Assembly (NCBI GenBank): GCA_030647555.1
Contig: JAUSJG010000024.1
Span: forward strand, 3,878 to 67,877
Reading direction: 5' to 3'
Source of the DNA: a bacterium
Lineage (GTDB): Bacteria > Patescibacteriota > Andersenbacteria > UBA10190 > CAIZMI01
DNA: 64,000 nt
Shown here: in pieces, positions 3,237-51,683 of the stretch
Position numbering within the stretch: the stretch's first letter is position 1
How the letters are laid out: each line of letters begins with the position of its first letter
Position numbers and translations under genes: made by a program
The notes under the pieces: model-generated
Database searches by the model: none
Told to the model about the DNA's origin: nothing
Seen by the model: the letters and a program-made list of their open reading frames with translations, nothing else

Positions 3237-4676
3237 ATGAAAACATTACAGATGAAGAAATTGGAACAAAGCAAGAATCTACTTATTAGTGGGGCGTTTT
3301 CCATTATTTTGGCGTTATTTGCCTTTGGAGCAAAAGCAAATAACTGCACGGAAAACGTACTAAGCATCGAAAATGTTCTCAATGGGGTGCAAAACAATCA
3401 AATAAGCATTTCCTTAACACCGAACCTCGGCGAAAACACTGCTACTGCGGTAATCTCGAATCGTGCTTGTGGCACAATACCGGTTAGTCTTTCCTCTTAT
3501 ACGATGATTGAGCCATACACTACGCGTGTTTCAACACAAGTATTCTTTGCCGGATCGGCATTAACAAACGTCCTTCCGGGCGAAACAAAATCACTTACAG
3601 TTGCGATAGCGAATTGTGCCACGCAAGTTGATTTCTGGTACGGACAATTTCCAACCCATTTACAGGATAATCATTCTTACGCCGATGTGTACCTTGCGGC
3701 TATTTTGCCCCGATCTGGCAACTGGTGTCCCGTCGCTACTCCAACACCGACGCCAACACCCGTTCCCGCGGCCAAACAATGTGCCAACGGTATCGATGAC
3801 GATGGTGACGGAAAAATAGATGTTGCTGATTCAAGTTGTCATACCGATTTCAATCCGGCCAACCCTGGGAGTTATGATCCAACTATCAACGACGAAGGTC
3901 GTGGTGGTAATGGCACTTGTAACGATTCCCGTGATAATAACGGCAATGGTTTAATTGATGGTGCTGACCCAATTTGTCACACGGATGGCAACGTGGGTAA
4001 CCCAAATTCATACGATGGAAATCGTAATGAAACAGGAACAACCGTAACTCCAACTTCTACTCCTACTCCAACTTCTACTCCTACTCCAGCAAACAACGTT
4101 ACAACAGTTACCGATCAAAAAATTACGGTTGTTGTCGCTGCGGATTCTTCCAAGAATGCAAAAGATAATATCGAATTTTCGAAAACTGATGATCGCGAAA
4201 CGGTTAAACAAGGAGAAACTTTAACCTACAAACTCCGTGTTCGAAACAACAGGGACAACGACATTACAAATGTAAAAATTGTTGATCGCTTACCAAGCTA
4301 CCTCATTCCATTTGCCACACAACCAACCGCACGCGCCGACGCAAAAAGCAGAACCATTACTTGGGACAACCAAACAATTTCCGCTAATTCCGAAGTAACA
4401 TTCTCATTACGTGTAAGAGTCGACTTGGATGCCCCGAACGGCTATTTGATTCAAAATTCCGCCATTGTTAACGGTGACGGGATAAGAGGTAACGCGACCG
4501 ATGCCACATTGATTCAAGGTATCGCCCCGCAAATTGCCAGCGCTTCAATCGCCCCAATCACGGCCGTACCGGTCACAGCCAAAACGGGATTACCTTTTGA
4601 TACATTTTCAATGTTACTCTCGTTGTCTGGAAGTCTAGCTACAGCCGGAACGCTAATAACAAAACGCTTTATCTAA
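3237..4676 (+). CDS. cell-surface protein: signal peptide, PT linkers, two Cys-flanked DxDxDG calcium-binding (dockerin/EF-hand-like) repeats, DUF11-like domain, C-terminal sorting signal
   Basis: N-terminal signal. TPTPTPTP linkers. CANGIDDDGDGKIDVAD and CNDSRDNNGNGLIDGAD repeats. C-terminal AKTGLPFDT, then hydrophobic stretch, then KRFI. Confidence 0.7.
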   Translation: MKTLQMKKLEQSKNLLISGAFSIILALFAFGAKANNCTENVLSIENVLNGVQNNQISISLTPNLGENTATAVISNRACGTIPVSLSSYTMIEPYTTRVSTQVFFAGSALTNVLPGETKSLTVAIANCATQVDFWYGQFPTHLQDNHSYADVYLAAILPRSGNWCPVATPTPTPTPVPAAKQCANGIDDDGDGKIDVADSSCHTDFNPANPGSYDPTINDEGRGGNGTCNDSRDNNGNGLIDGADPICHTDGNVGNPNSYDGNRNETGTTVTPTSTPTPTSTPTPANNVTTVTDQKITVVVAADSSKNAKDNIEFSKTDDRETVKQGETLTYKLRVRNNRDNDITNVKIVDRLPSYLIPFATQPTARADAKSRTITWDNQTISANSEVTFSLRVRVDLDAPNGYLIQNSAIVNGDGIRGNATDATLIQGIAPQIASASIAPITAVPVTAKTGLPFDTFSMLLSLSGSLATAGTLITKRFI

Positions 4677-5563: not shown

Positions 5564-6886
5564 ATGACAATTATTCAAAAAACTTTAACCGGCCTTTTTG
5601 TACTTATGTTGCTTTTTGATACTGCACCTGCTTTTGCGCAAAGCCCGGATCCATTTGGCAATCGCGCCCAGGCCGATACTTCTATTTCCTATAGCCCCCC
5701 GGCTATTTATGTGACAAAAATAAACCTAGAGCCAATATCCGCTACCAATGAAATTAAAGGGAAGTTTATGGTATGGAACAACGACAAAGAAACGATCGGC
5801 GGACTGCTTTATCGCATCGACTTACTTGATCCGCTTCCGGAACCCGATCCCAACACCGGCAGTGTGGAAGATAATTCAGCACTTTATGACCGTTTTGTTT
5901 CAAGCGACCAATTTTCGCTTTCGCCAAACGAACGAAAAGAAATCGCTTTCTCCTACAATCCGCCGGCATTACCGGAAGGAAAATATCGCATTCAAATTAC
6001 CGCCACCAATTCCCGTGGTCGCGATATGGGCTGGTGGAACGAGGACGTTTCTCTGTCCAGTCAAAAAACGGGTTTTATTAAATTAGTTACGGGTCCATTG
6101 CTTTCGCCGGAATATCCTGACCGAAAATTCCCCTCACAAGCCGGACCAAATATTACGCCCGGAAAGTATATCAATCTAAATGTTTCCGCGCTAAATAATT
6201 TCGAAACGCCGGCAAATATTATTCCTGTCCTCTATATTTATGAGTTCGATATCGCGCGCGGTCTATTTGATAAAATTAAAATTCCTGCGGTAAAAATTCC
6301 TGCCGGCGATGCAAAAAATATCAGCTTTCCTTTACAAGTTGCATCCAAACCAGGTGTTTATTACGGCCTCCTGACACTTGAAGATTTCACTTCGAATCAA
6401 AAAGTATCTAATCTCGCCGAATACCGCTGGGTGGTAAAAGGCGAACACGCGGAAGTAATTTCGATGCGAATAATTAAAAACGCGACAAAAAAAGACCAAG
6501 AAATGATGGTGCGTGTCGATTTGGTAGGATCAGCCGATGCTTTTACAAAAACAAAAGTTGATCTGAATGTTGCCATCAAAGACAGCGATGGAATTGTCGG
6601 CAACATCGACGTCAAAAGCGCGGAACTGACGGATGGCGTCGCCACGACGCAAGGCCCAATTAAACTAACGCGCGATCTTAAGAATAACTCTGAAATTATT
6701 GCGACCATCAAAGATCAAAAAGGAAATCAAATTGATCAATATATTATTCCATTGACTGAAAATTCGACTCCCACAATACCACCAAAGTCTTACAAATCAA
6801 TACAGATCGGGGTCGCAATAATTCTATTGGCTGGAGCGGGATTATATGGCATAAAAAACATTTTCAAGAAAATAAAAAAGATGTAA
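5564..6886 (+). CDS. secreted/cell-surface protein with C-terminal TM anchor and basic tail
   Basis: Signal peptide ending AFAQ. C-terminal IGVAIILLAGAGLYGI + KNIFKKIKKM. Confidence 0.55.
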   Translation: MTIIQKTLTGLFVLMLLFDTAPAFAQSPDPFGNRAQADTSISYSPPAIYVTKINLEPISATNEIKGKFMVWNNDKETIGGLLYRIDLLDPLPEPDPNTGSVEDNSALYDRFVSSDQFSLSPNERKEIAFSYNPPALPEGKYRIQITATNSRGRDMGWWNEDVSLSSQKTGFIKLVTGPLLSPEYPDRKFPSQAGPNITPGKYINLNVSALNNFETPANIIPVLYIYEFDIARGLFDKIKIPAVKIPAGDAKNISFPLQVASKPGVYYGLLTLEDFTSNQKVSNLAEYRWVVKGEHAEVISMRIIKNATKKDQEMMVRVDLVGSADAFTKTKVDLNVAIKDSDGIVGNIDVKSAELTDGVATTQGPIKLTRDLKNNSEIIATIKDQKGNQIDQYIIPLTENSTPTIPPKSYKSIQIGVAIILLAGAGLYGIKNIFKKIKKM

Positions 6887-6999
6887 TAAATATTTTAAAT
6901 CGAGTTGACATAAATATCTAATTGTTGTCTGACATAAACATACCATTGACAAAAATAACCATATAAACTATGTTTATCCGTTAACTAATAATTATCTAT

Positions 7000-8436
7000 A
7001 TGACCGATTTAATCAAAGGACGGTTGCAAAAAACAGTACTGGTCGCAGGAATATTGCTTTTTGTAATCGGACTCGTCTCGTTTAACATTAATAACGCGAA
7101 TGCCGCCGGTAGCGGTAATGGCATTGAAGTGCTTTCCCCTGTTACCGCAGGTGCTGTGCGTAGCAATTTTTGGAATTTTGTTGGTAACGCCCAACCGGTA
7201 GTACAAGTTTTTGTAAACCAACCGACGCATAACGCGCCGGCCGGCACTTACGAAAAGACCAATGTTCCCTACGCTTATCGCGTGGACTGGATCGCTTGCG
7301 CCAACAAATTTGCCGTCGCGCGTGCGATTGTCCGTTATGACAAAAATGGTGGCCGTCAATCGACATTACAAGGCGAAAACAGTAATTGGCAGGTACTCGA
7401 AGACAATGTGATCAATGATGTAAATTGTGGTGGTTACGCTTGTATTGCAACACGCAGTTTCTCGGGCAACTATAATCTCTCCGGGTTAGACGCAAGCGCC
7501 TGTAATACTACGATCCAATTCGTCGTCAAATGGAATTGGTCCGAATGCGGATTACGCGGCGACTACACACCGACCAGTTCTGTCGATGCCGGTGATGCCC
7601 TCATCGCGAAAGGTCAAGCGCACGCGGTCAACGTTTGGGTGAACTTTGTTTGCCCAACGCCAACGCCTGTCCCGACGCCTACACCTACGCCAACGCCGGT
7701 TCCTACACCTACTCCAACACCTACACCAACACCTACGCCTACGCCTACACCAACACCTACGCCTACGCCTACGCCTACGCCTACGCCTACGCCTACGCCG
7801 GTTCCTCCAACCCCAACTCCTACGCCGGTCCCACCGACACCAATGCCACAAAACAATGTGCAAGTGGTAACGGAACAAAAGATCGTTGTCGTTGTCGCTG
7901 ATACGAAGAAAGAAAATAAGAACAATATTGAGCTTTCCAAGACGGATAATCGCGAAACGATTAAGCAAGGTGAAACTTCGACCTACAAAATCTCGGTGCG
8001 TAACAATCGCGATTCCGATATCACAAATGCTAAAATTGTTGACCGACTTCCATCTTATCTGATTCCCTTGTCCACAAAACCAAATGCTTCCACGAACGAA
8101 TCAAATCGTACCATCACTTGGGACCACCAAACGATTTCCGCAAACTCTGAAGTAACCTACGCGGTAAAAGTCCGAGTCGCGCTCGACGCTCCAAAAGGTT
8201 ACCTTCTGCAAAACGTCGTTATCATCAATGGCGATGGCATTCGCGCCACTGCGGTTGACACAACCCTCATTGAGGGAATTGTGCCCCAAATCGCCGCCGC
8301 GACGATTACGGCGCCAATACCGGTACCGGTCAGTGCGAAAACAGGACTACCGTTCGACACAATTTCAATGCTTCTTTCCTTCTCCGGTTCAGTCGCAACA
8401 GCGGGAACACTGATCACGAAGAAACTGATTAAGTAA
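7000..8436 (+). CDS. cell-surface protein with ~65-residue (PT)n linker, DUF11-like domain and the same C-terminal sorting signal as the 3237..4676 protein
   Basis: Long PTPTPT run. The DUF11 segment is paralogous to 3237..4676 (KIVDRLPSYLIP, RTITWD.QTISANSEVT). C-terminal AKTGLPFDT, then hydrophobic stretch, then KKLIK. Confidence 0.7.
   Translation: MTDLIKGRLQKTVLVAGILLFVIGLVSFNINNANAAGSGNGIEVLSPVTAGAVRSNFWNFVGNAQPVVQVFVNQPTHNAPAGTYEKTNVPYAYRVDWIACANKFAVARAIVRYDKNGGRQSTLQGENSNWQVLEDNVINDVNCGGYACIATRSFSGNYNLSGLDASACNTTIQFVVKWNWSECGLRGDYTPTSSVDAGDALIAKGQAHAVNVWVNFVCPTPTPVPTPTPTPTPVPTPTPTPTPTPTPTPTPTPTPTPTPTPTPTPTPVPPTPTPTPVPPTPMPQNNVQVVTEQKIVVVVADTKKENKNNIELSKTDNRETIKQGETSTYKISVRNNRDSDITNAKIVDRLPSYLIPLSTKPNASTNESNRTITWDHQTISANSEVTYAVKVRVALDAPKGYLLQNVVIINGDGIRATAVDTTLIEGIVPQIAAATITAPIPVPVSAKTGLPFDTISMLLSFSGSVATAGTLITKKLIK
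7663..7850 (+). repeat. in-frame tandem hexanucleotide repeat (acgcct/acacct)n encoding the PT linker
   Basis: Near-perfect CCTACG/CCAACA hexamer repeats. It generates spurious poly-GV, poly-R and poly-YA ORFs on other frames. Confidence 0.8.
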
Positions 8437-8547: not shown

Positions 8548-8686
8548 TAATTTTTAATTTGAAATTTGAAATTTTTAATCAATTTGAAATATCGTAATAG
8601 CTTAATTTTAAAAACGCGGAATTATTTCAAATTTATTTATTAAAAATTGATTTCAAATTACAAATTTTAAATTTCAAATTAAAACC
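8548..8686. repeat. palindromic TTGAAAT/ATTTCAA-rich element, copy B
   Basis: Same terminal inverted repeats as copy A. Lies between convergent genes. Confidence 0.6.
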
Positions 8687-9119
8687 ATATAAATACCTTG
8701 CCGATCCTTTACTACTATTTTTACTACCAGAAACAAAGCGGGGAATGTCTATTTTGCCCGTTTCCATTGACACGCCGTGAAAGAAATCCTTGCCATATCC
8801 TGTACTACCTATAGAATTAAGCGCATCGTTCTTTCATTGGCGCAAATAATATTCGAATTACCGACAAAACTATTTGGGGGCGGGCTGTTGCTGGAAAAGA
8901 GATAATTAGAAACAAAGCAAGAACATCTATTTTTTAGACAGAGTGTTTTGTGTTCTAAGGGACCTCAACTTCAACAATAACCCCCGTTGCTGTACGAATT
9001 TGCGATGGTAGCTGGAGGGCTTGCGGAAAAAGATATTTTTGCGAGGGTAAATTGCTCTTTTGAGTTATATAGGCACATAAAGTCAAGGACGCTTGGCTTT
9101 TTGTGCTGTTCGTTCTATC

Positions 9120-10139
9120 TCATATTTTTACCAAATCGCGAACGGCTTGAGCAATTGTTTCTGAATCAATTCCGACTTTTTTTATTAAGTCTTGATAACT
9201 GCCTGATTCGCCAAATTGGCGTAATCCTAAACGGCGCAGTTTTCCGACATTGTTTTCCGCCATAACTTCCGCTACCGCCGAACCAAGACCTCCGTTAACA
9301 CTATGATCCTCCACTGTCACGACACGGCCGGTTTTTCGCGCGGATATTAAAAGTGTCATTTCGTCCAGTGGTTTGATTGTTGGTACCGCGATCACTTCCG
9401 CATCAATGTTTTCTTTCGCCAAATTTGCGACGGCCACTAACACTTCTGCAACTTGCGGACCCGTGGCCACAATAGAAACATCTTTCCCTTCCTTTAACAC
9501 ATTCGCTTTTCCAATCACAAACTCGGCATCAGTTTTTGTAACCTGCGCCGTAGGTTCACGATACAAACGCAAATAGACCGGCCCCGGATAATTTATCGCC
9601 ACCACCAAGGCTTTCTTTGCTTCGTTGTAATCGGAAGGATTAATAATCGTCATATTCGGCAACGCCCGCATATAAGCGATATCCTCCAGCGCGTGCGCCG
9701 ACCCGCCGTCTGGCGCGTTGCTAACTCCTCCATGAGAGCCAACTATTATGACGTGCAAGCCACTTGAAAAAGATGAACTGCTATCTTCAGGGCCTGCCCC
9801 GCGCTGCGCCCTTCCGTAGCCTTGCGCGGAGGAGGGAAGCTTTAGTGAAGTGGGGTTCTGACAAATTTGCAAACGAATGTGATCAAATGCCCGAGTAAGA
9901 AAAACTGCGAATGAACCCGCAACCGGAATGTACCCACCCAATGCTAACCCGGCCGCCACGCCGGCCATATTTGCCTCTGCCACACCAGTATCAATAAAAC
10001 GGTCAGGAAACTCTTCCATAATTTTTCCCATCTTCAAACTTTCTCCAAGATCTGCTGTAAGCGCAAAAATGCGCTCGTCTTTTTTCATTATTTCGTAAAG
10101 TGCCTCACCAAAAGCTTGTCGTGTAGAAAGAAGTTCCAT
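9120..10139 (-). CDS. transketolase, C-terminal (pyrimidine-binding) subunit
   Basis: TK C-terminal fold motifs (FAVFLTRAFDHIR..., ...GPVYLRL...). Carries a ~25-aa Ser/Gly/Ala-rich insertion. Confidence 0.85.
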   Translation of the reverse strand: MELLSTRQAFGEALYEIMKKDERIFALTADLGESLKMGKIMEEFPDRFIDTGVAEANMAGVAAGLALGGYIPVAGSFAVFLTRAFDHIRLQICQNPTSLKLPSSAQGYGRAQRGAGPEDSSSSFSSGLHVIIVGSHGGVSNAPDGGSAHALEDIAYMRALPNMTIINPSDYNEAKKALVVAINYPGPVYLRLYREPTAQVTKTDAEFVIGKANVLKEGKDVSIVATGPQVAEVLVAVANLAKENIDAEVIAVPTIKPLDEMTLLISARKTGRVVTVEDHSVNGGLGSAVAEVMAENNVGKLRRLGLRQFGESGSYQDLIKKVGIDSETIAQAVRDLVKI

Positions 10140-38162: not shown

Positions 38163-38206
38163 AAAAAACCACAATTAAGGTCCGACCTTTATAGGTCGGA
38201 CCTTAA
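38163..38206 (-). terminator. perfect 13-bp-stem hairpin TTAAGGTCCGACC-tttata-GGTCGGACCTTAA followed on the minus strand by a T-run; member of a repeated hairpin pair
   Basis: Seen directly in the sequence. A second copy of the same stem lies at 39721..39753. Confidence 0.55.
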
Positions 38207-38223
38207 TGCGACGCTTTAATTTC

Positions 38224-39695: not shown

Positions 39696-39720
39696 AAAAA
39701 CCAGTATAGCGCATTACGCA

Positions 39721-39753
39721 TTAAGGTCCGACCTCTTAGAGGTCGGACCTTAA
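39721..39753. repeat. perfect 15-bp-stem hairpin TTAAGGTCCGACCTC-tta-GAGGTCGGACCTTAA (second copy of the 38175..38206 hairpin)
   Basis: Same stem sequence as at 38175..38206. Lies between the Nudix stop and the DUF45 start. Confidence 0.55.
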
Positions 39754-39778
39754 TCGGTCAACAGAAACAGAAACTGTA

Positions 39779-40210
39779 TCAATTGCCATTTTTGATAAAT
39801 TTCAAATACTCCTCAAAGACCTTAATTTCATCATCAATTAAAGCGTAATTTTTATAATCCTCCGGACTAATCCACTGAAAATCATCGTGGTCCGAACTTA
39901 ATTTGACATCGTTATTTTCCGCAAAACACTCAAAAAATATCGCCGTGATTTGCCAATTTTCGCCACGCACAACAGGGCGCCATTCACTCACAAAAAATGG
40001 CCTGCCGATTGTGATCTTTAATCCCGCTTCCTCCATCACTTCTCGCCTTAAACAATCGTCAAAACGTTCGCCCGGATTTATCCGCCCTCCCGGTACACCA
40101 TATTTTTTTACATTTATTCCGTCTTTGTACTCACCGGATTCGCGCACAATCAAGATTTTTCCTTCGTGCACAATAAATCCTTTTGTGGCGGTAAACTGCT
40201 TTATTTCCAT
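39779..40210 (-). CDS. Nudix hydrolase
   Basis: GGRINPGERFDDCLRREVMEEAGL matches GX5EX7REUXEEXGU well. Confidence 0.8.
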   Translation of the reverse strand: MEIKQFTATKGFIVHEGKILIVRESGEYKDGINVKKYGVPGGRINPGERFDDCLRREVMEEAGLKITIGRPFFVSEWRPVVRGENWQITAIFFECFAENNDVKLSSDHDDFQWISPEDYKNYALIDDEIKVFEEYLKFIKNGN

Positions 40211-40255
40211 GTTTTTATATTAGCACCATAAACAAACAAGGAAAATAAACAATCA

Positions 40256-40314
40256 CCCCACTTCGCTCACCCTCCGCATAAAGCTACGGAGTGGCGCAGT
40301 AAAGCTTCGTGGGG
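40256..40314. repeat. 59-bp repeat element copy 1 (CCCCACTTCGCTCACCCTCCGCATAAAGCTACGGAGTGGCGCAGTAAAGCTTCGTGGGG)
   Basis: Second copy at 40700..40758 (~90% identity, direct orientation). A shortened relative lies at 45742..45774. Confidence 0.6.
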
Positions 40315-40364
40315 TTATTTTATTATAGATAATCCTTTGTAAAGGATTATCTATAATAAAATAA
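40315..40364. repeat. 50-bp near-perfect palindrome (23-24 bp arms) TTATTTTATTATAGATAATCCTTT-gt-AAAGGATTATCTATAATAAAATAA
   Basis: Seen directly in the sequence. Confidence 0.7.
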
Positions 40365-40390
40365 AAAACGGGGAGCCTCAAGGGCTCCCC
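40362..40390 (-). terminator. strong rho-independent terminator on minus strand (ggggagcc-tcaag-ggctcccc with A7/T7 tract)
   Basis: 8-bp GC-rich stem. The T-tract is on the minus strand. It sits ~390 bp downstream of the EEP gene stop with no ORF between. Confidence 0.6.
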
Positions 40391-40699
40391 TGTCATATCT
40401 GCGCCTCCTAATGGAAGTTTGTTGTAACAAGAACGCAGTTACGACACCGGTTACTGCCTTTTTTGCAGAAAAATCCGCATAGGGCTGCAACTTCCGGATA
40501 TTGCGGAAGACAACAGCAAACCCAGAGCTAACCAGCGCCGTAAGATAAAGTGACCACCCCCTTTCTACTCAAGAACAAACTCCAGAAAATGCAACAGAAA
40601 ATGCGAGATCTTCATGATGTTCTCCTTTCGTTGAGTAGGGGCTTTGAGGTGAAAAAGTACGAACGCAATTACATTATAATCGGGGACCGTCCCTGTCGT

Positions 40700-40758
40700 C
40701 CACACTTCGCTCACCCTCCGCATAAAGCTACGGCGTGACGCAGTAAAGCTACGAGGGG
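40700..40758. repeat. 59-bp repeat element copy 2, enclosed by a 13-bp inverted repeat (GACCGTCCCTGTC ... GACAGGGTCGGTC)
   Basis: Direct repeat of 40256..40314. Flanking inverted repeats at 40685..40697 and 40762..40774. Confidence 0.6.
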
Positions 40759-40783
40759 CAGGACAGGGTCGGTCACCGATTAT

Positions 40784-41542
40784 TCAAATTTCCAACACCG
40801 CCACTAACGGCACGTGATCCGTCACGTCTTCATTTGTCGAATAATGTTCCAACACTTTGATATTCGGACTGACGTAAATCATATCCACCACCGCACCGGC
40901 AAATCCGGAACCAGCCGGCTTATGACGCATATTAAATGATGTTTTTATTTCACCCTTAAAAATATTTTTTAAATCCTTCTCAAAATTAGCCATCGATTTG
41001 GTATTTTCTTGCGTATTAAAATCTCCACAAAGAATCGTATTTTCCTTGCCCTTATATGCCTCACGAATCGTATCGCTCATTTTTAATCGCCGTTCATTAT
41101 CATCACCGTCGAAACCCCAAATACCTTGCGTGTTAAAAACATTTAACTTTTGTTCTCCCGTATCAATTTCGACATGTTCCAAATTGCGCGGAGAAAACGA
41201 AAAATCGTTCATCTCCGCATAGTTATCGTCATATGGGACATCAAAAAAAATAGCTTCACCTTTTACAATAGGATACTTGGACAAAATAGCATTCCCAAAT
41301 TCCGCCTTCGGCATATCAGGACGCGTTCCCACAAACGCCGGCGCATTGTGACAATATGGAAAATTAAAAATCTTCCGCAACTCTTCCAGTGTTCGATAAT
41401 TGGGCGGTAATTTCTGGTCATCACTTTTCATCACTTCCTGCAATGCCAAGATATCGGGATTCTCTTTGCGGATAAACGCCACCACGTTATCCCATAACTT
41501 TCCACCGTACCAAAGATTGAGACAGACAAGTTTTAGTTGCAT
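40784..41542 (-). CDS. endonuclease/exonuclease/phosphatase (EEP) family protein
   Basis: ILALQEV, ILCGDFN and TDHVPLVAVLEI motifs. Confidence 0.75.
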   Translation of the reverse strand: MQLKLVCLNLWYGGKLWDNVVAFIRKENPDILALQEVMKSDDQKLPPNYRTLEELRKIFNFPYCHNAPAFVGTRPDMPKAEFGNAILSKYPIVKGEAIFFDVPYDDNYAEMNDFSFSPRNLEHVEIDTGEQKLNVFNTQGIWGFDGDDNERRLKMSDTIREAYKGKENTILCGDFNTQENTKSMANFEKDLKNIFKGEIKTSFNMRHKPAGSGFAGAVVDMIYVSPNIKVLEHYSTNEDVTDHVPLVAVLEI

Positions 41543-45669: not shown

Positions 45670-45741
45670 AATGGTTGTTTATTAACAATTTAACCACTTT
45701 TATATTAGCGCAAGTTTCAAAATGTTTAAAGAATCAAATAT

Positions 45742-45826
45742 CCCACTTCGCTCCGCGTTGCGGAGCTTCGCGGGATTGTTTTCTTTTGTAAAAGAAAACA
45801 AAAAAAACCGCCCTTGAGGAGCGGCT
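45742..45826 (-). terminator. composite terminator/repeat module: CCCACTTCGCTCCGC-gtt-GCGGAGCTTCGCGGG hairpin + GTTTTCTTTT-gta-AAAGAAAAC hairpin + A9 + ccgcccttgaggagcgg hairpin
   Basis: Lies downstream of the 45831..46370 gene. The GATTGTTTTCTTTTnnnAAAGAAAACAAAAAAA core recurs at 47056..47090. Confidence 0.5.
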
Positions 45827-45830
45827 GGAT

Positions 45831-46370
45831 TCACGAACGACACTTCGTGAAAATGTGTTGAATGGTATTCGTTGGTATTACCCATACTAGTTGCATAGGC
45901 TGAACCGACATTGAATGGTAATTCAACTCATGCACATCAAGTTGCCATTTCAAGGAAAGCGTCTGAAAATGCGCCAGCTTTGTGATATTGTCTGCTCCTT
46001 GTTCCAGAAGATCCCCTTTCTCCAGGTGCGGGATTGACAGACCCCAATTACACTCACTGACACGCTCTTCAATTGTCCGACGCGCCGCCTCGATTGTGTC
46101 GGCACAAAATTCTTCAAACGCGATATCCGCCGTTGCAACTTGTGTCTGCAAATTACGCGGAATGTTCTCACGACCCAGCCGGTTGGCAAATTCAATCCGT
46201 TCATTTCCTGAAAAACCGGAAAGAATCAACTGCGGTCTGTCGCTCCACAATTCACCCACTGAAAGAACCACGCCTTGCGGCCTAATCCCAAACAACGGCT
46301 GCAGGTATTGTTGCAATCGATCAACGTTCATTGTTCTACCTCCAAAAAGAAAAGGACATTTCGACGCCAA
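45831..46370 (-). CDS. hypothetical protein (GC-rich; possible true start at MNVDRL, 46331)
   Basis: Long ORF with GC-rich codon usage unlike its neighbours. No family recognised. Confidence 0.4.
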   Translation of the reverse strand: MASKCPFLFGGRTMNVDRLQQYLQPLFGIRPQGVVLSVGELWSDRPQLILSGFSGNERIEFANRLGRENIPRNLQTQVATADIAFEEFCADTIEAARRTIEERVSECNWGLSIPHLEKGDLLEQGADNITKLAHFQTLSLKWQLDVHELNYHSMSVQPMQLVWVIPTNTIQHIFTKCRS

Positions 46371-46913: not shown

Positions 46914-47083
46914 GTTTTAGAAAAGAAAAAATTAATTTAAACAATCAACAGCCCAACCACTCCCGCCAACAAAACATAAATCACGCAATACGGAAATACA
47001 ATTTTTATTACTTGATGCTCTCTGTTTTTCAAACGCCCTGTTGGGCGGGCTATGGGGGATTGTTTTCTTTTACGAAAGAAAAC

Positions 47084-47112
47084 AAAAAAAGAGTACGAAC
47101 GAATTCGTACTC
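47084..47112 (-). terminator. rho-independent terminator of the nadE-containing operon (gagtacgaa-cgaa-ttcgtactc + T7 on minus strand), followed by a GTTTTCTTT...AAAGAAAAC hairpin
   Basis: 9-bp perfect stem with the T-tract on the minus strand, immediately 3' of the nadE stop. Confidence 0.65.
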
Positions 47113-47139: not shown

Positions 47140-49266
47140 TTACGGCACGCGATCGCAGTCCGCTTGCCACTCGTCGTCACAACCCTCCGTCGGCCACACA
47201 AAGTCCCCACCAAGCGGTGATAGCGACAAGAGGCCCAACTTCACACTGTCCGGCACGCAGTTGCGTTTATACTGACCGTCAAAAAACCGCCGCCAGAAAA
47301 CCTTTTGCCACTTCACAATCTCCGGCAACGAAAAACTTGGTTCTCCCTCCGAGAAAACTTCCCAAACGGCGCGATTGATCCAGCTGGGACGCCGTCCAAA
47401 GCGTAACCCCCAAAACAAAAAGAATTCGCGCAAGATTTCCGGACCGATAATCTCATCCGTAATCTGAACTCGCTTACCGCCCACTAAGCGCGTCAACTCC
47501 GGTGATGGCGCCAATCCGGCCACTGCTCGAAATGCATCCCGCACGAGCGGTTGACCCACAAACACATGATCCGCCATCCAAAGCAGAACATGTTTTTCCA
47601 AACTCTTGGGCATCGAAGCATTCGGATTGAAATGACTGGCCCCGTCACCATGCATCGTAAACCACCCCACGGCGGCTTCCGTCATCGTGCCGGTACCGAT
47701 AAACATGCCAATCTCGCGTGCCCCGATGGTCAAAGCTAAAACCGTTCTCAACCAGGCCTGCGCGTTTTCAAATGCCAAATCCTCTTTCAAACCATCGTGG
47801 CCGGAGAGAAGAAGAAGCATTTCTGCCAGACCCAACACTTGTTCTGGTCTATCCGAAAGAGGTACATCCAAACTGGAACCATTCTTGGCAATCGGAATTT
47901 CGCGGAAATCAAATCCAAACGCCTCGCCGATTGTTCGCGCCAGATCGCGCGTTTCATCGGTTGTTCCAAACCCCGGAATCGACAAACAAACAACATCGTC
48001 ATGATCGTAATGGAGTAGATCCGCCGCGTGCGCGATCACTCCGGCAACATTTACCGAATCGCGCCCGCCGGAAAGATTGAACAACAACTTCACTTTGCGT
48101 TGTTGCTTCTCCTGCATGTAGCGCCAACGACAAGCTAGCGCGTGCGTTTGAATCCGGTGCACCGTTTCGCAGGCATAAGTAAGTTCCGCCGGATCCTCCG
48201 GCACGAAAGGTGTACGAGAAATCTTTCGCTTTAGAACATACTGGGGAGAGTGTTCGCCCCGATTCGCAAAAGTAACACCAGGACAAGATACTGGCGATTG
48301 ATCCAACCACCCAAACTCTTGCACTCGGAAATCAACAGCCCCGGGGCGCAACATGTTTTCAATCCATGCCTTGTTATCACTAAACGTGTGTTGCTCCAAA
48401 CGATCTTGCACGCAAGAACCAAGATCGACATCGTGCGTAAGATGAGACGACTCGAAACCGAAACGTTGCTCCCCTTGCGCAATAATGTTGCCCCGTTCCG
48501 CCACAAGAATCTGGTTGTCCCAAGCAAGTCCCCGATTTCCTTCTCCGGGACCAGCGGAAACATACAAATAGACATTGTTGTTTTTTCCGGAAGCGACTTT
48601 GACCAAGTCCTGCCGAAACAAATCTTTACCAATTGTAATGTTACTGGCCGAGAGATTCATCTCCACCATCGCTCCCCAGAGGGCGGCAAAGGCGGAAGGA
48701 CTGATGGGTACCCACATGTCCTCGCACAGTTCGTGATGCAAAATGAAGTCTTCGCAAAACTTGTGCTTGAGCAAAATGTCCCAACCACAGGGAATTACCG
48801 TTCCCAACAACCGCATCTGCCGTAAGGTTGACCGATAGCCGGGAATAAAAAACTTGTGCTCCAAGAACTCGCGATAGTTTGGCAAGAAACTTTTGATGTG
48901 CCCCGACAAGGGGCGCCCGCCGTAAAACGAAATTGCGCAGTTATACAAATCCGTACCTTGCACGATTGGCGCGCCAACTGTGATGAGCATCGGAAAATTG
49001 CGTGTCTTTTCGGCCAATTCGGCCAATGTTTCCAGTGTCGCCTCTTGCAACGTTTCGCTCTGAAACATTTTGTCACAGCTGTAGCCGGTAATGGAAAGCT
49101 CCTGAAAACCGGCAAATTGCGAACCTTCCTGCTTCATCTGTTGTAAAACCTGCATGTGTTCATCGAGATTCTTACGCGGTGCACCAATGTGCGTCCGTGT
49201 TACACCCAACGAGACACGTGCAAAACGATGATGACGCAAATCGTACCAGTCGTAATTGTTCTTCAT
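47140..49266 (-). CDS. nadE: glutamine-dependent NAD+ synthetase (N-terminal CN-hydrolase/nitrilase domain + NAD synthase PP-loop domain)
   Basis: FARVSLGVT...IGAP..N...ELSITGYS nitrilase-like N-terminus. NLSGGRDS PP-loop. 708 aa, like long-form NadE. Confidence 0.85.
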   Translation of the reverse strand: MKNNYDWYDLRHHRFARVSLGVTRTHIGAPRKNLDEHMQVLQQMKQEGSQFAGFQELSITGYSCDKMFQSETLQEATLETLAELAEKTRNFPMLITVGAPIVQGTDLYNCAISFYGGRPLSGHIKSFLPNYREFLEHKFFIPGYRSTLRQMRLLGTVIPCGWDILLKHKFCEDFILHHELCEDMWVPISPSAFAALWGAMVEMNLSASNITIGKDLFRQDLVKVASGKNNNVYLYVSAGPGEGNRGLAWDNQILVAERGNIIAQGEQRFGFESSHLTHDVDLGSCVQDRLEQHTFSDNKAWIENMLRPGAVDFRVQEFGWLDQSPVSCPGVTFANRGEHSPQYVLKRKISRTPFVPEDPAELTYACETVHRIQTHALACRWRYMQEKQQRKVKLLFNLSGGRDSVNVAGVIAHAADLLHYDHDDVVCLSIPGFGTTDETRDLARTIGEAFGFDFREIPIAKNGSSLDVPLSDRPEQVLGLAEMLLLLSGHDGLKEDLAFENAQAWLRTVLALTIGAREIGMFIGTGTMTEAAVGWFTMHGDGASHFNPNASMPKSLEKHVLLWMADHVFVGQPLVRDAFRAVAGLAPSPELTRLVGGKRVQITDEIIGPEILREFFLFWGLRFGRRPSWINRAVWEVFSEGEPSFSLPEIVKWQKVFWRRFFDGQYKRNCVPDSVKLGLLSLSPLGGDFVWPTEGCDDEWQADCDRVP

Positions 49267-49297
49267 TTTGGTTTCCTCTATGCTTTGGTTTCAGAAA

Positions 49298-50272
49298 CTA
49301 GTTTTCGAAATAACTCCGCACCGCCAAGATCTGCTTGGAGATATCGCAGTCAAGTGGCAAAACTTCAAACGGATGACAATCATCTGCCTCCCTTAGGGCG
49401 TTAATCGTCCATGGACAGGAATTCGTCGTCCAGAAATGTTCAATCGGAAAATCCGCGTTGCAGATTTTGGTCCAAGACTGATTTGGTGCAACAAGGTGGG
49501 TCGCGTACATACTGATTTTTTTGGCACCACCCCTAATAAGCACCTCACCACATTTCAGTTGTGTACCAAAGGTTTGAGCAAGATCATCAACGACCACGCA
49601 GTGACGACCACGCGGTTCACCTTCTTTAATCGTCACGATCCTCCGATTACCTTCCCTGTGTTTATCGCAAATAATCAGAGGCCACTCGCTAAACATTTCC
49701 CCGAAGCGTTTTTTTGCGCCCTCGTCGGGAAATACGACAGATACGTTGTTACGATCAGGCAATCCACGCAAATGTTTCTGAAGCATCGGAATCGCGCTTG
49801 TCAAAATAGGCAACATATTTGTTCCTTCGAAAATAAACCATTCCGACAAGGCATGCATATCCCAAATCACCACACGATTCTTCAAGGAAACACAAGATGG
49901 AATACTCGACAAATCACGCGCCATTGATTTGGCCGTGACAATCCGACCTTGCCGATCCATTCGCTCCATTGTCCCGGTTGGGAAAAAGGGAAGAATAATC
50001 GTGAGCGAACGCGCTTGGTAATACGCGAAAGCACTCATTACCCAGCGTTGCGTGACACTGTCCTGTGGATTTTCAAAGGCCGCCAAAAACGCCACGTCGC
50101 GCCCCCTCAAGGAGTTTTCATCTTTCATCACAATGTGAAAGTCCGGCCAACTGTCGGCAAAACGGCCCCATTGAATGTTTCCTCGCACCATCCCGGAACC
50201 GACGCCGGTAATCGACCGCGCCATCTGTTCCATTGCCTCACAATAATAGACAATAATCGGTTTCATCATCAA
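49298..50272 (-). CDS. ribose-phosphate pyrophosphokinase (Prs)-family protein, divergent
   Basis: Collinear with Prs: DMHALSEWF (DLHA.QIQGFF), VVFPDEGAKKR (VVSPDAGG.KRA), GRHCVVVDDLAQTFGT (GRDCVLVDDMIDTGGT), YATHLV. The substrate-loop residues are altered (FFPTGTMER, QTFGT). Confidence 0.7.
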   Translation of the reverse strand: MMMKPIIVYYCEAMEQMARSITGVGSGMVRGNIQWGRFADSWPDFHIVMKDENSLRGRDVAFLAAFENPQDSVTQRWVMSAFAYYQARSLTIILPFFPTGTMERMDRQGRIVTAKSMARDLSSIPSCVSLKNRVVIWDMHALSEWFIFEGTNMLPILTSAIPMLQKHLRGLPDRNNVSVVFPDEGAKKRFGEMFSEWPLIICDKHREGNRRIVTIKEGEPRGRHCVVVDDLAQTFGTQLKCGEVLIRGGAKKISMYATHLVAPNQSWTKICNADFPIEHFWTTNSCPWTINALREADDCHPFEVLPLDCDISKQILAVRSYFEN

Positions 50273-50438
50273 TCTCCTTCTCTACTTATGTAGTTGTGAA
50301 AAAACCATCCGACACAAACTGTAAACTTCCGTTGCAATGGCCGAACAATTTTGTTGTTCAGCTGCTGCAAAAAAGGGCCGCGTAAAATTGCACTTGGTGC
50401 AATTACGCGGCTGGATTTTGGTTACTTTCAAAAGGGAG

Positions 50439-51683
50439 CTAAACCCGGCAAACTTCCGTGTCGTTATGCGTGTGTCCGTAGATACGCTTAGCACGCGCGA
50501 TGTCTTCCAACCTTCCAACAGCCTTCGCAAGATTATCGGAAAGTTTTACCGGCCAGCGACCGTTGGCACGGATAATTTTGGCAACGAGCGAGATCGGATC
50601 GATCCCCAAATCATTCCCTAAATCCGTCCCCCACCCGTAGCAGGTACCGAGCCGGTTCTCAAAATGAAGATAGAGTTCAATGATTCTCTCCGCCCACAGA
50701 CCGTCCGAAAACACACCAAGCTTGGTAAGTGGATTAACACCGAACCCCTTGTAAAACTGAATCGCCCGCTCACCCCACTTGAAGGGGTCACCCGAATCCT
50801 GACGCAACCCTTTCCAGAGCATCGCTTGTTCTCGCGTCATATCCCGGAAGAAAAAATCACTGCCGAAAGTATCGGTTAAAGCGATTGAGAGCGACTCGCC
50901 GTACAAATCCCACCAATCTTTCAGCATTTGCTGATGCGATTGCCGGATCGAATCGTCATCATCTCCAAATAGGCAAGCATAGACCATGTCAAGCTCGTGC
51001 GCTTGCGTCCCTTGGACTTTCAAACCTTGTTCCATCGCAATCCACACGTTGGAGGTACCGGTCAGCTGCTCAGGTTTCAATTCATTCATAAGTCGACAAA
51101 TTACTTTTTCTTGCCAATCAAGACAACAACGCCGGCGTGTACTAAACTCCATGATCCGAATTCCGGGATACTGCGAAATCATCTCCAATTTTCTTCCCAA
51201 CCGGAGATGTCCTTCCTTGTACAAATCCTGCAACGTCATATCCTGCGCTCGCAACACAAATTGGTTGCGAAGTTGGTTGACAATGGTAATACCAATCGTT
51301 TCCCAAGGACTCGCTTCTTCCCATGCGCCTGGAAACCGCAAATCGTACTGCCCGTCCAATCCAACCTCTAACTCATAGGGGGGCAACTGAAATTCGCGCA
51401 GATAATCCACAAACTCTGGCGCATACTGCGGCCGTCCATCAGAAAGACGAAAGCTTCGCAGATAGTCCAATTCGCGATCGGTAAACCGCAATGTTCGACA
51501 ATGGTCAAGCTGGGCCTGCAGTTCGCTAATGGGGATAATATCCGCCAACCGCACGCTCTTTGTGCGGTTGTTCATCGCAAGAACCACCGGCACACCCCGC
51601 CGTTTACTCCAAATCAATTGTTGCATGTTGAGTTTATAGACGTCCAAATCGGTCAAGTGATTGATAATCGGTTTTTCTTTCAC
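50439..51683 (-). CDS. pncB: nicotinate phosphoribosyltransferase (type II PRTase, PncB-like)
   Basis: N-terminal LTDLDVYKLNMQQLIW matches the PncB LLDTDAYKLHMQQAV signature. ~400-aa length. Confidence 0.75.
   Translation of the reverse strand: MKEKPIINHLTDLDVYKLNMQQLIWSKRRGVPVVLAMNNRTKSVRLADIIPISELQAQLDHCRTLRFTDRELDYLRSFRLSDGRPQYAPEFVDYLREFQLPPYELEVGLDGQYDLRFPGAWEEASPWETIGITIVNQLRNQFVLRAQDMTLQDLYKEGHLRLGRKLEMISQYPGIRIMEFSTRRRCCLDWQEKVICRLMNELKPEQLTGTSNVWIAMEQGLKVQGTQAHELDMVYACLFGDDDDSIRQSHQQMLKDWWDLYGESLSIALTDTFGSDFFFRDMTREQAMLWKGLRQDSGDPFKWGERAIQFYKGFGVNPLTKLGVFSDGLWAERIIELYLHFENRLGTCYGWGTDLGNDLGIDPISLVAKIIRANGRWPVKLSDNLAKAVGRLEDIARAKRIYGHTHNDTEVCRV

Follow-up and report, generated by a model that had tools for sequence, protein, structure and literature searches.

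The closest described systems to the repeats treated here are the tagged repetitive extragenic palindromic (REP) elements, of which the GTAG-tagged ones are linked to RAYT transposases, and the CGTC-tagged ones, including RPE-4 and RPE-6 of Rickettsia and dRS3 of Neisseria, occur in several phyla, have no known transposase, can lie inside genes and, in some families, lie within other palindromes (Di Nocera et al. 2013, PMC3733652). The locus that we examined, at positions 40211-40783 of a 64-kb stretch of DNA (the window, in whose numbering coordinates are given), is a gap of 570 bp that separates two minus-strand genes, for a NUDIX protein (39779-40210) and for an endonuclease/exonuclease/phosphatase (40784-41542), and it carries two copies of a 59-nt palindromic repeat around a predicted small RNA. 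Two further kinds of system bear on it. In Rickettsia, selfish palindromes called RPE-1, about 100-150 bp long and confined to that genus, reportedly sit in frame in protein genes, including essential ones, and are translated. Dual-function and leader-peptide small RNAs are short, independently terminated transcripts that combine a translated mini open reading frame (ORF) with a structured domain.

We consider it likely that the gap is composite, made of an ancestral small-RNA gene and of later insertions of a REP-like palindromic repeat. The original prediction for this DNA had proposed a candidate small-RNA locus or a mobile-element scar. The former gains comparative support, since a promoter-to-terminator unit of ~300 nt is conserved in eight orthologous loci. 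The latter holds in part: the copies are palindromic repeats of mobile type whose sites are empty in a close relative, but they represent two independent insertions and not one element.

Contigs with the same gene order were collected by comparing the endonuclease/exonuclease/phosphatase protein (58-81% identity to the window protein). L-numbers denote loci or contigs of such relatives, or of repeat-bearing genomes, that were compared with the window. The window and its two closest relatives, L131 and L132, form the three-way alignment A2, and six sequences of the small-RNA unit form the alignment A1.

Probable insertion history of the locus

The repeats and palindromes of the gap are as follows.

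40256..40314, minus strand: copy 1, a compound hairpin reading CCCCAC-GAA-GCU..(33-nt nested unit)..AGC-GAA-GUGGGG
40315-40338 / 40341-40364, no strand: perfect AT-rich palindrome, 24+24 nt with a 2-nt spacer, 100% complementary
40676-40697 / 40762-40783, minus strand: arms of an older hairpin of 20-22 bp (20/22 complementary)
40700..40762, minus strand: copy 2 with a CCTG tag, a 63-nt insertion (columns 39-101 of alignment A2)

The two direct copies (40256-40314 and 40700-40758), announced as about 90% identical over 59 bp, were found to be 92% identical, and their 31-nt core, which has exactly two occurrences in the window, is absent from all 100 shuffles. Each copy is compound, with a 33-nt hairpin unit nested in the loop of a short hairpin. 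Copy 1 folds on the minus strand at -33.9 kcal/mol (z -5.6); in copy 2 the stem P1 has decayed and contains two mismatches. As had been claimed, no credible ORF lies between the copies: the largest in 40211-40783 has at most 62 codons, and no gap ORF is conserved in relatives. The 50-bp palindrome at 40315-40364 proved to be perfect, and it is the longest perfect palindrome of the 64 kb.

The evidence for insertion comes from L131, whose flanking protein is 80% identical and in which both copy sites are empty, with precise junctions. At the copy-2 site, L131 has an insert-free hairpin, ATAATCGGTGACCGACCCTGT-ACGA-CAGGGACGGTCACCGATTAT, directly 3' of the stop codon. The older hairpin of the window likewise begins directly after the endonuclease/exonuclease/phosphatase stop codon, and its 3' arm bears the -10 box of the small RNA. 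The window differs by 63 nt (the CCTG tag and copy 2) added inside the loop of this shared hairpin: L131 reads CCCTGT joined directly to ACGACAGGG, and the window reads CCCTGT, the 63 nt and then ACGACAGGG, with zero duplicated target bases. The inverted repeat that the original prediction described as a 13-bp clamp around copy 2 is thus real, but it measures 22 nt (20/22 paired) and is the older structure, in whose loop the repeat landed. In L132, the same loop holds a 30-nt short form, CCTG-CCCCGC-GUA-GC-UUUA-GC-AAA-GUGUAG; the 59-nt form is thus the short form with 33 nt nested in its loop. Tested as a miniature inverted-repeat transposable element, copy 2 gave no target-site duplication (copy-2 site, L131 against the window), and no related insertion sequence was seen.

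At the copy-1 site, a T-tract and the NUDIX promoter region come immediately after the terminator in L131, and the window has ~120 extra bases, consisting of the AT-rich palindrome, which is not present in L131, and copy 1. L132 carries a different AT palindrome and a different hairpin here. Because the T-tract after the L131 terminator matches window sequence downstream of copy 1, the ~120-nt insertion sits between the terminator stem and the old T-tract and brings a new one: the first arm of the palindrome supplies the U-tract of the small-RNA terminator on the minus strand.

Judged from these sequence comparisons, the two 59-nt copies are independent later insertions at separate sites. Copy 2, 63 nt with its tag, would have entered the loop of the older hairpin, with which the small-RNA promoter overlaps, and copy 1 would have arrived together with the AT-rich palindrome between the small-RNA terminator stem and the original T-tract, without target duplication.

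The same organism is represented in an independent assembly by L121 (Logan contig SRR13727527_469353), which stops inside copy 2, 72 nt past the endonuclease/exonuclease/phosphatase stop codon, as would be expected if the repeat broke the assembly.

The predicted small-RNA unit and its neighbours

Eight orthologous loci share the order methyltransferase, endonuclease/exonuclease/phosphatase, gap, NUDIX and YgjP, most of them without the repeats. In all eight, the gap contains a unit of 295-333 nt with the same succession: a TATAAT-like -10 box, a GCGUA start, a Shine-Dalgarno (SD) sequence, a short ORF, a conserved box, ~200 nt of structured sequence and a strong terminator. In the window, its parts and the start of the NUDIX gene are placed as follows.

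40363..40666, minus strand: predicted small-RNA transcript of ~300 nt, its 5' end deduced from the -10 box
40673..40702, minus strand: promoter-like site, -10 TATAAT (40678..40673) and -35-like TGGACG (40702..40697)
40565..40629, minus strand: SD sequence GAAAGGAG and 16-codon ORF MKISHFLLHFLEFVLE, ATG at 40615, stop at 40567..40565
40550..40564, minus strand: AAAGGGGGUGGUCAC box directly 3' of the small-ORF stop; relatives read GGAGGUGAUC
40491..40509, minus strand: hairpin CUUCCG-CAAUAUC-CGGAAG (helix 7) with an invariant loop, a candidate interaction site
40439..40543, minus strand: long-range helix of UUACGGCGCUGG (40543..40532) with CCGGUGUCGUAA (40450..40439), enclosing the 3' domain
40363..40390, minus strand: intrinsic terminator GGGGAGCC-CUUGA-GGCUCCCC, then G UUUUUU
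40217..40222, minus strand: -10-like TAATAT, six bases before the NUDIX ATG (40210)

Read from the sequences, the -10 box stands at the equivalent position in all relatives; in the window, the -35-like TGGACG arises at the junction of copy 2 and the older hairpin. The strong minus-strand terminator of the original prediction was confirmed, with a stem at 40390..40370 of eight pairs (seven of them G-C) followed by GTTTTTT. It occurs at the same place in 8/8 orthologous loci, with compensatory changes in 5/8 stem pairs.

In the 5' module, an SD sequence and an ORF of 16-20 codons lie at the same place in 8/8 loci, and the amino-acid sequence is not conserved. After the small-ORF stop, the loci share a box with the consensus A(A/G)GG(A/G)GGUGAUC, of which GAAAGGGGGTG is invariant in alignment A1; the form found in relatives, GGAGGUGAUC, is what we take to be the perfect complement of the 16S rRNA 3' end. 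The box is predicted to pair with UUCACCUC, an anti-Shine-Dalgarno-like stretch near the 5' end of the same RNA (helix 2 of the consensus fold, GGGGGUG with UUCACCUC).

Six loci align well over the whole unit (65% mean column identity), with the invariant blocks GAAAGGGGGUG, UCUU.CG and CCGCAA.AUCCG, the last unchanged in 6/6 sequences with a stem that covaries; the other two loci have only the 5' module in common with the six. The consensus fold of the six sequences comprises 52 pairs, including the 12-bp long-range helix (helix 6: 11 pairs, two with compensatory change) and a loop with the consensus CAA(A/U)AUC. It pairs 91.6% of cells against about 52% (50-57%) in slid controls, and 14 of its pairs are changed on both sides against 0-8 in slid controls and in 1 of 500 shuffles, support that is moderate because the related sequences are few and the structure was taken from the same alignment. 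Folded alone, the window RNA gives z -3.48.

This RNA matches no described family that we searched. ARAGORN found neither tRNA nor tmRNA in the window, so the small-ORF RNA is not called as a tmRNA. A covariance scan with Rfam 15, which had been suggested as a check, gave zero family matches at gathering score in the 64-kb window and in five orthologous loci, and chance-level matches only on 40100-40900 and four hairpin loci. A metagenome scan for the small-RNA box (AAAGGGGGTG..TATCTTRCGGCG) returned two matches, both chance occurrences in high-GC coding DNA. Altogether, the comparison supports a candidate small-RNA gene with a mini-ORF, conserved in relatives and with no Rfam counterpart.

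We propose that an ancestral minus-strand small-RNA gene, from ~40666 to 40363, would have its own sigma-70-type promoter and intrinsic terminator. Ribosomes on the small ORF would disrupt the pairing of the 5' stretch with the 16S-complementary box (UUCACCUC / GGGGGUGGUC), and this opening may switch the fold of an RNA that would act through the conserved CAAUAUC loop.

Alternatively, the 300-nt unit could be a cis-acting leader of the NUDIX gene (an attenuator or riboswitch with a leader peptide), or the mRNA of a tiny protein. The unit always lies directly upstream of NUDIX, with the terminator 40-60 nt before the NUDIX ATG in relatives, its SD sequence and short ORF at the start resemble those of leader-peptide attenuators, and gene callers place ORFs of 79 and 81 codons here in L125 and L127. 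However, these two ORFs cross the terminator and have no window counterpart, and the peptide of the small ORF is unconserved. More than 200 nt separate the small ORF from the terminator, unlike in classical attenuators, and the ~120-nt insertion of the window parts the terminator from NUDIX and disrupts neither. Furthermore, six loci (window, L122, L125, L127, L131 and L132; L128 and L133 were left out) have a TAnnAT box 6-8 nt upstream of the ATG of NUDIX and no SD sequence. Since the box is this close to the ATG and no SD sequence precedes it, the NUDIX mRNA is probably leaderless and made from its own promoter. For this reason we prefer an independent small RNA, and regard a NUDIX leader or a tiny-protein mRNA as unlikely.

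At a distance of a few kb from the NUDIX genes is a cluster for NAD salvage and synthesis (47140-51683), with a NadE-like NAD synthase, a phosphoribosyl-pyrophosphate-synthetase-like gene and a nicotinate phosphoribosyltransferase; its proximity may be relevant to what the NUDIX enzymes hydrolyse.

The hairpin family in the window and beyond

Further members of the repeat family lie elsewhere in the window.

45741-45775, minus strand: short relative, a clean hairpin, -24.7 kcal/mol, z -5.8
45740..45826, minus strand: terminator 45826..45806, AT palindrome 45801..45776, short-form hairpin 45775..45741
47035..47112, minus strand: truncated remnant 47035-47059, AT palindrome 47060-47086, terminator 47091-47112; family D7, 86% over 42 nt
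9762..9856, plus strand: compound copy within the transketolase C-terminal-subunit gene (hairpin 9792-9856)

The shortened relative noted earlier near 45742..45774 thus folds cleanly, and the search for more copies that had been recommended added those at 9792-9856 and ~47035-47059, besides at least 120 loci elsewhere. Model R1, built from 58 genome copies of the hairpin, has four matches in the window: 45740-45780 (50.5 bits, E 4e-10), 40255-40319 (29.4 bits, E 5e-5), 9792-9856 (16.5 bits, E 0.065) and 40699-40763 (12.4 bits, E 0.64). Over 75 kb of syntenic DNA of relatives, it found nothing below E 2.6.

Read on the window minus strand, a unit consists of a 5' CYTG tag, a GC-rich stem of 6-7 bp, a symmetric GAA/G(A/U)A internal loop, a second stem started by GC, and a loop. 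The 9.8-kb copy, too, contains the 33-nt unit (CTGCGCC..CCGTAGC..GCGGAGG..), lodged there in another unpaired part of the outer hairpin; the unit is thus mobile in its own right. Nesting is displayed by the window copies, the 9.8-kb copy, L072, L095, L097, L083, L030 and L047, and compound forms related to those of the window occur in Peregrinibacteria and Peribacteria genomes (L072, L095, L097).

Four sites (40.3 kb, 45.8 kb, 47.06 kb and L132) show one and the same order, in which a terminator stem is succeeded by a T-rich arm, an A-rich arm and a hairpin, and the 47.06-kb palindrome is 86% identical to that at 45.8 kb. A general partnership of AT palindromes and hairpins was rejected, since it holds for 7/123 copies and is confined to this lineage. 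Perfect palindromes of a second family (ATTAAGGTCCGACCT..AGGTCGGACCTTAAT, with 15-17 nt per arm) lie at 38174-38207 and 39720-39754, in two neighbouring intergenic gaps; these palindromes may be bidirectional terminators or operators. Preceding the 45.8-kb array on the minus strand is a 179-codon ORF without a Pfam match (45831-46370), followed by the terminator, AT palindrome and hairpin. The relatives L135 and L136 lack, between their cupin and DUF1059 genes, the whole block of ~0.7-0.85 kb from this ORF through the 45.7-kb hairpin.

Across genomes, an exact-pattern scan (CCCACTTCGCTC-N(8-38)-GCTTCGNGGG, one genome per species) gave at least 120 loci. Among the matches listed, about 110 are true hairpins, most of them in Patescibacteria (Peribacteria, Peregrinibacteria, Saccharibacteria, Paceibacterota, Uhrbacteria and others), with several genomes contributing 3-6 contigs each; about eight, in high-GC phyla, were discarded as chance matches with no hairpin. 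In window-minus-strand sense, the unit order is CTTG tag, closing pair, CCC(G/U/A)C, GAA, GCUC, variable stem-loop, GAGC, GAA, GUGGG. Over 100 copies, the tag consensus is C63 T60 T67 G82, and the closing pair covaries (C-G in 60, T-A in 33). The first pair past GCUC/GAGC is Watson-Crick in 87% of 76 distinct sequences, with all four pair types, against 29% expected. Units measure 30-45 nt, or 59 nt when compound, and about half of the copies lie outside long ORFs. A looser descriptor recovered sister subfamilies with the outer stems CCUCC/GGAGG, CCGCC/GGCGG and CACGC/GUGUG. The pattern had zero matches in 2.9 million viral contigs, and so there is no sign of phage carriage. A literature search with sequence strings and keywords found no description of a CTTG-tagged GAA/GAA hairpin family.

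How far the family spreads across phyla is uncertain. The SecA of L105, labelled Gammaproteobacteria, is 46% identical to E. coli SecA, against 44% for a Berkelbacteria SecA, and L033, labelled Rickettsiales, has 72% GC. Taxon labels outside Patescibacteria are therefore doubtful, as the L105 SecA is no closer to E. coli than SecA of the Candidate Phyla Radiation and L033 has so high a GC content.

About a third of the family loci, among the matches listed, lie in frame inside genes. For copies deep within genes (ORFs of at least 250 codons), the length is a multiple of three in 30/36, against 13/29 of intergenic copies, and either orientation occurs (23 vs 13). The host genes look, by conserved sequence motifs, like SecA, Ile-, Val- and Leu-tRNA synthetases, NusA, RseP and TatD, and the encoded peptides include PTSL..ELRGA, PHFAP..GASRG, TPLRS..GSFAGQ and APRSS..RSEVG. 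The clearest case is the transketolase C-terminal-subunit gene of the window (9120-10139, minus strand), with an in-frame insertion of 31 codons encoding PTSLKLPSSAQGYGRAQRGAGPEDSSSSFSS and consisting of the compound hairpin and ~30 nt of weaker palindrome. An L136 ortholog (66% identical) is without exactly these 31 residues, between AFDHIRLQICQN and LHVI.VGSHGG, and the Pfam Transket_pyr match to the window gene is split into two stretches. Similarly, SecA of L115 and L105 differ by a 13-residue gap; for LeuRS, the comparison of L062 with L073 for empty sites was ambiguous, both copies being in variable linkers. In-gene copies would survive only if the reading frame is kept.

We infer that the CTTG-tagged GAA/GAA hairpin family spreads as selfish DNA, as a non-autonomous REP-like repeat. 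Its movement would probably involve a folded single strand and an enzyme provided in trans. A RayT-like ORF at 1690-2190 of L108 (E 1e-7 to E. coli RayT) is flanked, in REPtron-like fashion, by inverted GAGCGGGYCTTCGRCCCGCG hairpins, which are a different repeat; no second such ORF was found in the 872 kb of repeat-bearing loci. L004 has, 1.1 kb from a hairpin, an ordinary transposase gene of IS200 type (6500-7150).

The hairpins could instead be motifs that serve the host, at the level of RNA or of single-stranded DNA (as terminators, in mRNA stabilisation, as processing signals or as a protein-binding site), and are maintained by selection. The 12-nt arms are identical in many lineages and the inner stem covaries, conservation extends to the GAA/GAA loop and to a wobble or mismatch whose place in the stem is fixed, one in-gene copy is common to several Peribacteraceae loci, copies are enriched next to tRNA genes, and T-rich runs follow copies 1 and 3 on the plus strand. 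However, a strong orientation bias was not found: besides the two orientations within genes, those between co-directional genes number 10 vs 4 under explicit criteria (p 0.18), and the split by GC skew is 69 vs 45. Because both orientations occur, transcripts carry either the GAA or the UUC form. Copies also lie within unrelated essential genes where only frame preservation is evident, and close relatives manage without copies at the same sites. Finally, the 59-nt hairpin does not qualify as an intrinsic terminator, as the downstream flank of most genome copies is CAAG and not a T-run (flanks read CAAG/CAGG); only window copies 1 and 3 precede T-rich arms of AT palindromes, on the strand opposite to the neighbouring genes. 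Selection for a host function therefore seems to us quite improbable as an explanation of the family.

A single mobile element, with the 59-nt repeats as its ends or attachment-site duplicates and the 385 bp between them (terminator included) as cargo or scar, is extremely improbable: the direct copies do lie 444 bp apart with no protein gene in between, and the L121 contig does break inside copy 2, but the inter-repeat DNA, with promoter and terminator, is ancestral, being present in L131, L125, L127, L133, L122 and L128, none of which has the 59-nt repeats, and the two insertion sites are separate and precisely definable, with L132 bearing the short form at one and a different hairpin at the other.

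Several points weigh against a composite of small-RNA gene and selfish repeats as we describe it. The small-RNA promoter, 5' end and small-ORF translation are predictions from sequence; the covariation statistics come from six related sequences with a structure derived from their own alignment; and the eight loci in total fall into two sequence groups with non-aligning 3' domains. AT-rich palindromes as neighbours of the hairpin are rare elsewhere (7/123). As for movement, tblastn with E. coli RayT and IS200 TnpA against the window and 136 loci found no mobilising enzyme in the window. General insertion into hairpin loops was rejected, since stems are no more frequent in the flanks of 100 genome copies than at random positions. 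A strict nesting descriptor recovers one nested pair, the other nested cases having been recognised by eye. Moreover, one in-gene copy is common to seven Peribacteraceae loci (six genomes) and its arms are perfectly conserved, which could reflect selection on the sequence instead of pure selfishness, although the exact-match search biases this observation.

The original prediction had named a widespread REP as the outcome that would tell against it. The repeats do turn out to be widespread and REP-like, and the inference of a small RNA is unaffected by this.

The neighbourhood of tRNA genes deserves separate mention. Hairpins lie within 300 nt of a tRNA in 16/84 cases (45 tRNAs), against ~3-4 expected; such loci are L028, where the neighbour is a tRNA-Arg, L067, L078, L093, L040 and L083 (5' side), L006, L044 and L094 (3' side), and L050 and L089. 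In several cases the last base of the hairpin is exactly tRNA position -1 and G+1 of the tRNA completes the stem, or the hairpin begins immediately behind the 3' CCA. Two genomes have, ahead of tRNA-Gln, an incomplete duplicate of the 5' portion of the tRNA, with a hairpin immediately after it. The 5' half of the element (stem strand and G(U/A)AGCUC) resembles tRNA positions 1-13 and GAGC resembles the D-stem return, for which reason the hairpin may be a tRNA-derived mini-element.

Taken jointly, these observations allow a bolder reading, which we offer tentatively and hold to be doubtful as a whole. The hairpin may represent a third, uncatalogued superfamily of tagged palindromes (CTTG, GAA/GAA), characteristic of Patescibacteria, whose machinery would recognise folded single strands. 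It would land in unpaired parts of hairpins (its own kind included), by terminator stems and exactly at tRNA ends, would colonise essential genes in frame, and is perhaps tRNA-derived; the 300-nt RNA would independently be a new ribosome-sensing regulatory RNA.

The region contains a conserved candidate small-RNA gene, which RNA libraries do not recognise, of a lineage seen in metagenomes alone, and it should be annotated neither as a single mobile element nor as junk. The repeat family is recognisable and abundant in ultra-small minimal genomes, which are generally considered poor in selfish DNA. Its copies add 10-31 residues to proteins (transketolase and, by motifs, SecA and tRNA synthetases) without breaking them, with consequences for gene calling, protein alignments, phylogenomic markers and assembly. 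It also offers a tractable case of REP-like movement without an evident transposase, in which the exact abutment on tRNA ends, if general, would be a testable clue to mechanism.

The window contains two other kinds of repeat, AT-rich AAATTTGAAATTT-type repeats in two intergenic regions and CCTACG/CCAACG coding repeats of 12-18 nt arranged in runs; their positions, listed jointly, are 1426-1557, 8549-8692; 3736-4087, 7654-7809.

Comparison with known systems

Like dual-function small RNAs, the 300-nt unit combines a mini-ORF with a structured domain, and it has no homology to a described family (Rfam 15, window and five relatives). The repeat, compared by description only, inserts in frame like RPE-1 but differs from it in having units of 26-60 nt and in occurring mainly in Patescibacteria.

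With the CGTC REPs, the window family shares short palindromes, an unpaired 4-nt tag at one end, many copies per genome and some copies translated in genes; in-gene copies are in frame (30/36), and no linked transposase was found. In contrast, its tag is CTTG/CCTG and not CGTC/TGTC/CCTC. Its stem starts with (C/T)CCC, unlike the 8-9 bp stem of CGTC REPs with two A-T pairs first and a loop of 4-5 nt, and it continues through a conserved 3x3 GAA/GAA internal loop into a second stem, whose length varies. Whereas CGTC REPs have a CCA tail, the window family is without CCA, the base after the element being T in 52%. A CGTC/TGTC-tagged repeat of REP type is found in L127 at ~2880-2945 (..GGGATTGCTTCGGAGCTAAGGCTCCTCGCAATGACAG, an inverted pair), between the stop codon and the small-RNA promoter. 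Its unit, TGTC-ATTGC-GAG-GAGC..GCTC-CGAA-GCAAT-CCC, has a layout of stem, purine loop and stem comparable to that of the window family, and its motif CTCGCAATGACR also occurs in L113.

The GTAG REPs are imperfect palindromes of 20-40 nt that carry a conserved tetranucleotide on the 5' side of the stem, are believed to be mobile as single-strand hairpins and form clusters downstream of genes; the likeness of the window family to them extends to size and repetition. An unpaired terminal GTAG is lacking, G(T/A)AG occurring only inside the internal loop. Because the defining sequence features of both superfamilies fail in this way, we conclude that the window family is of the REP kind and stands beside the GTAG and CGTC superfamilies, belonging to neither.

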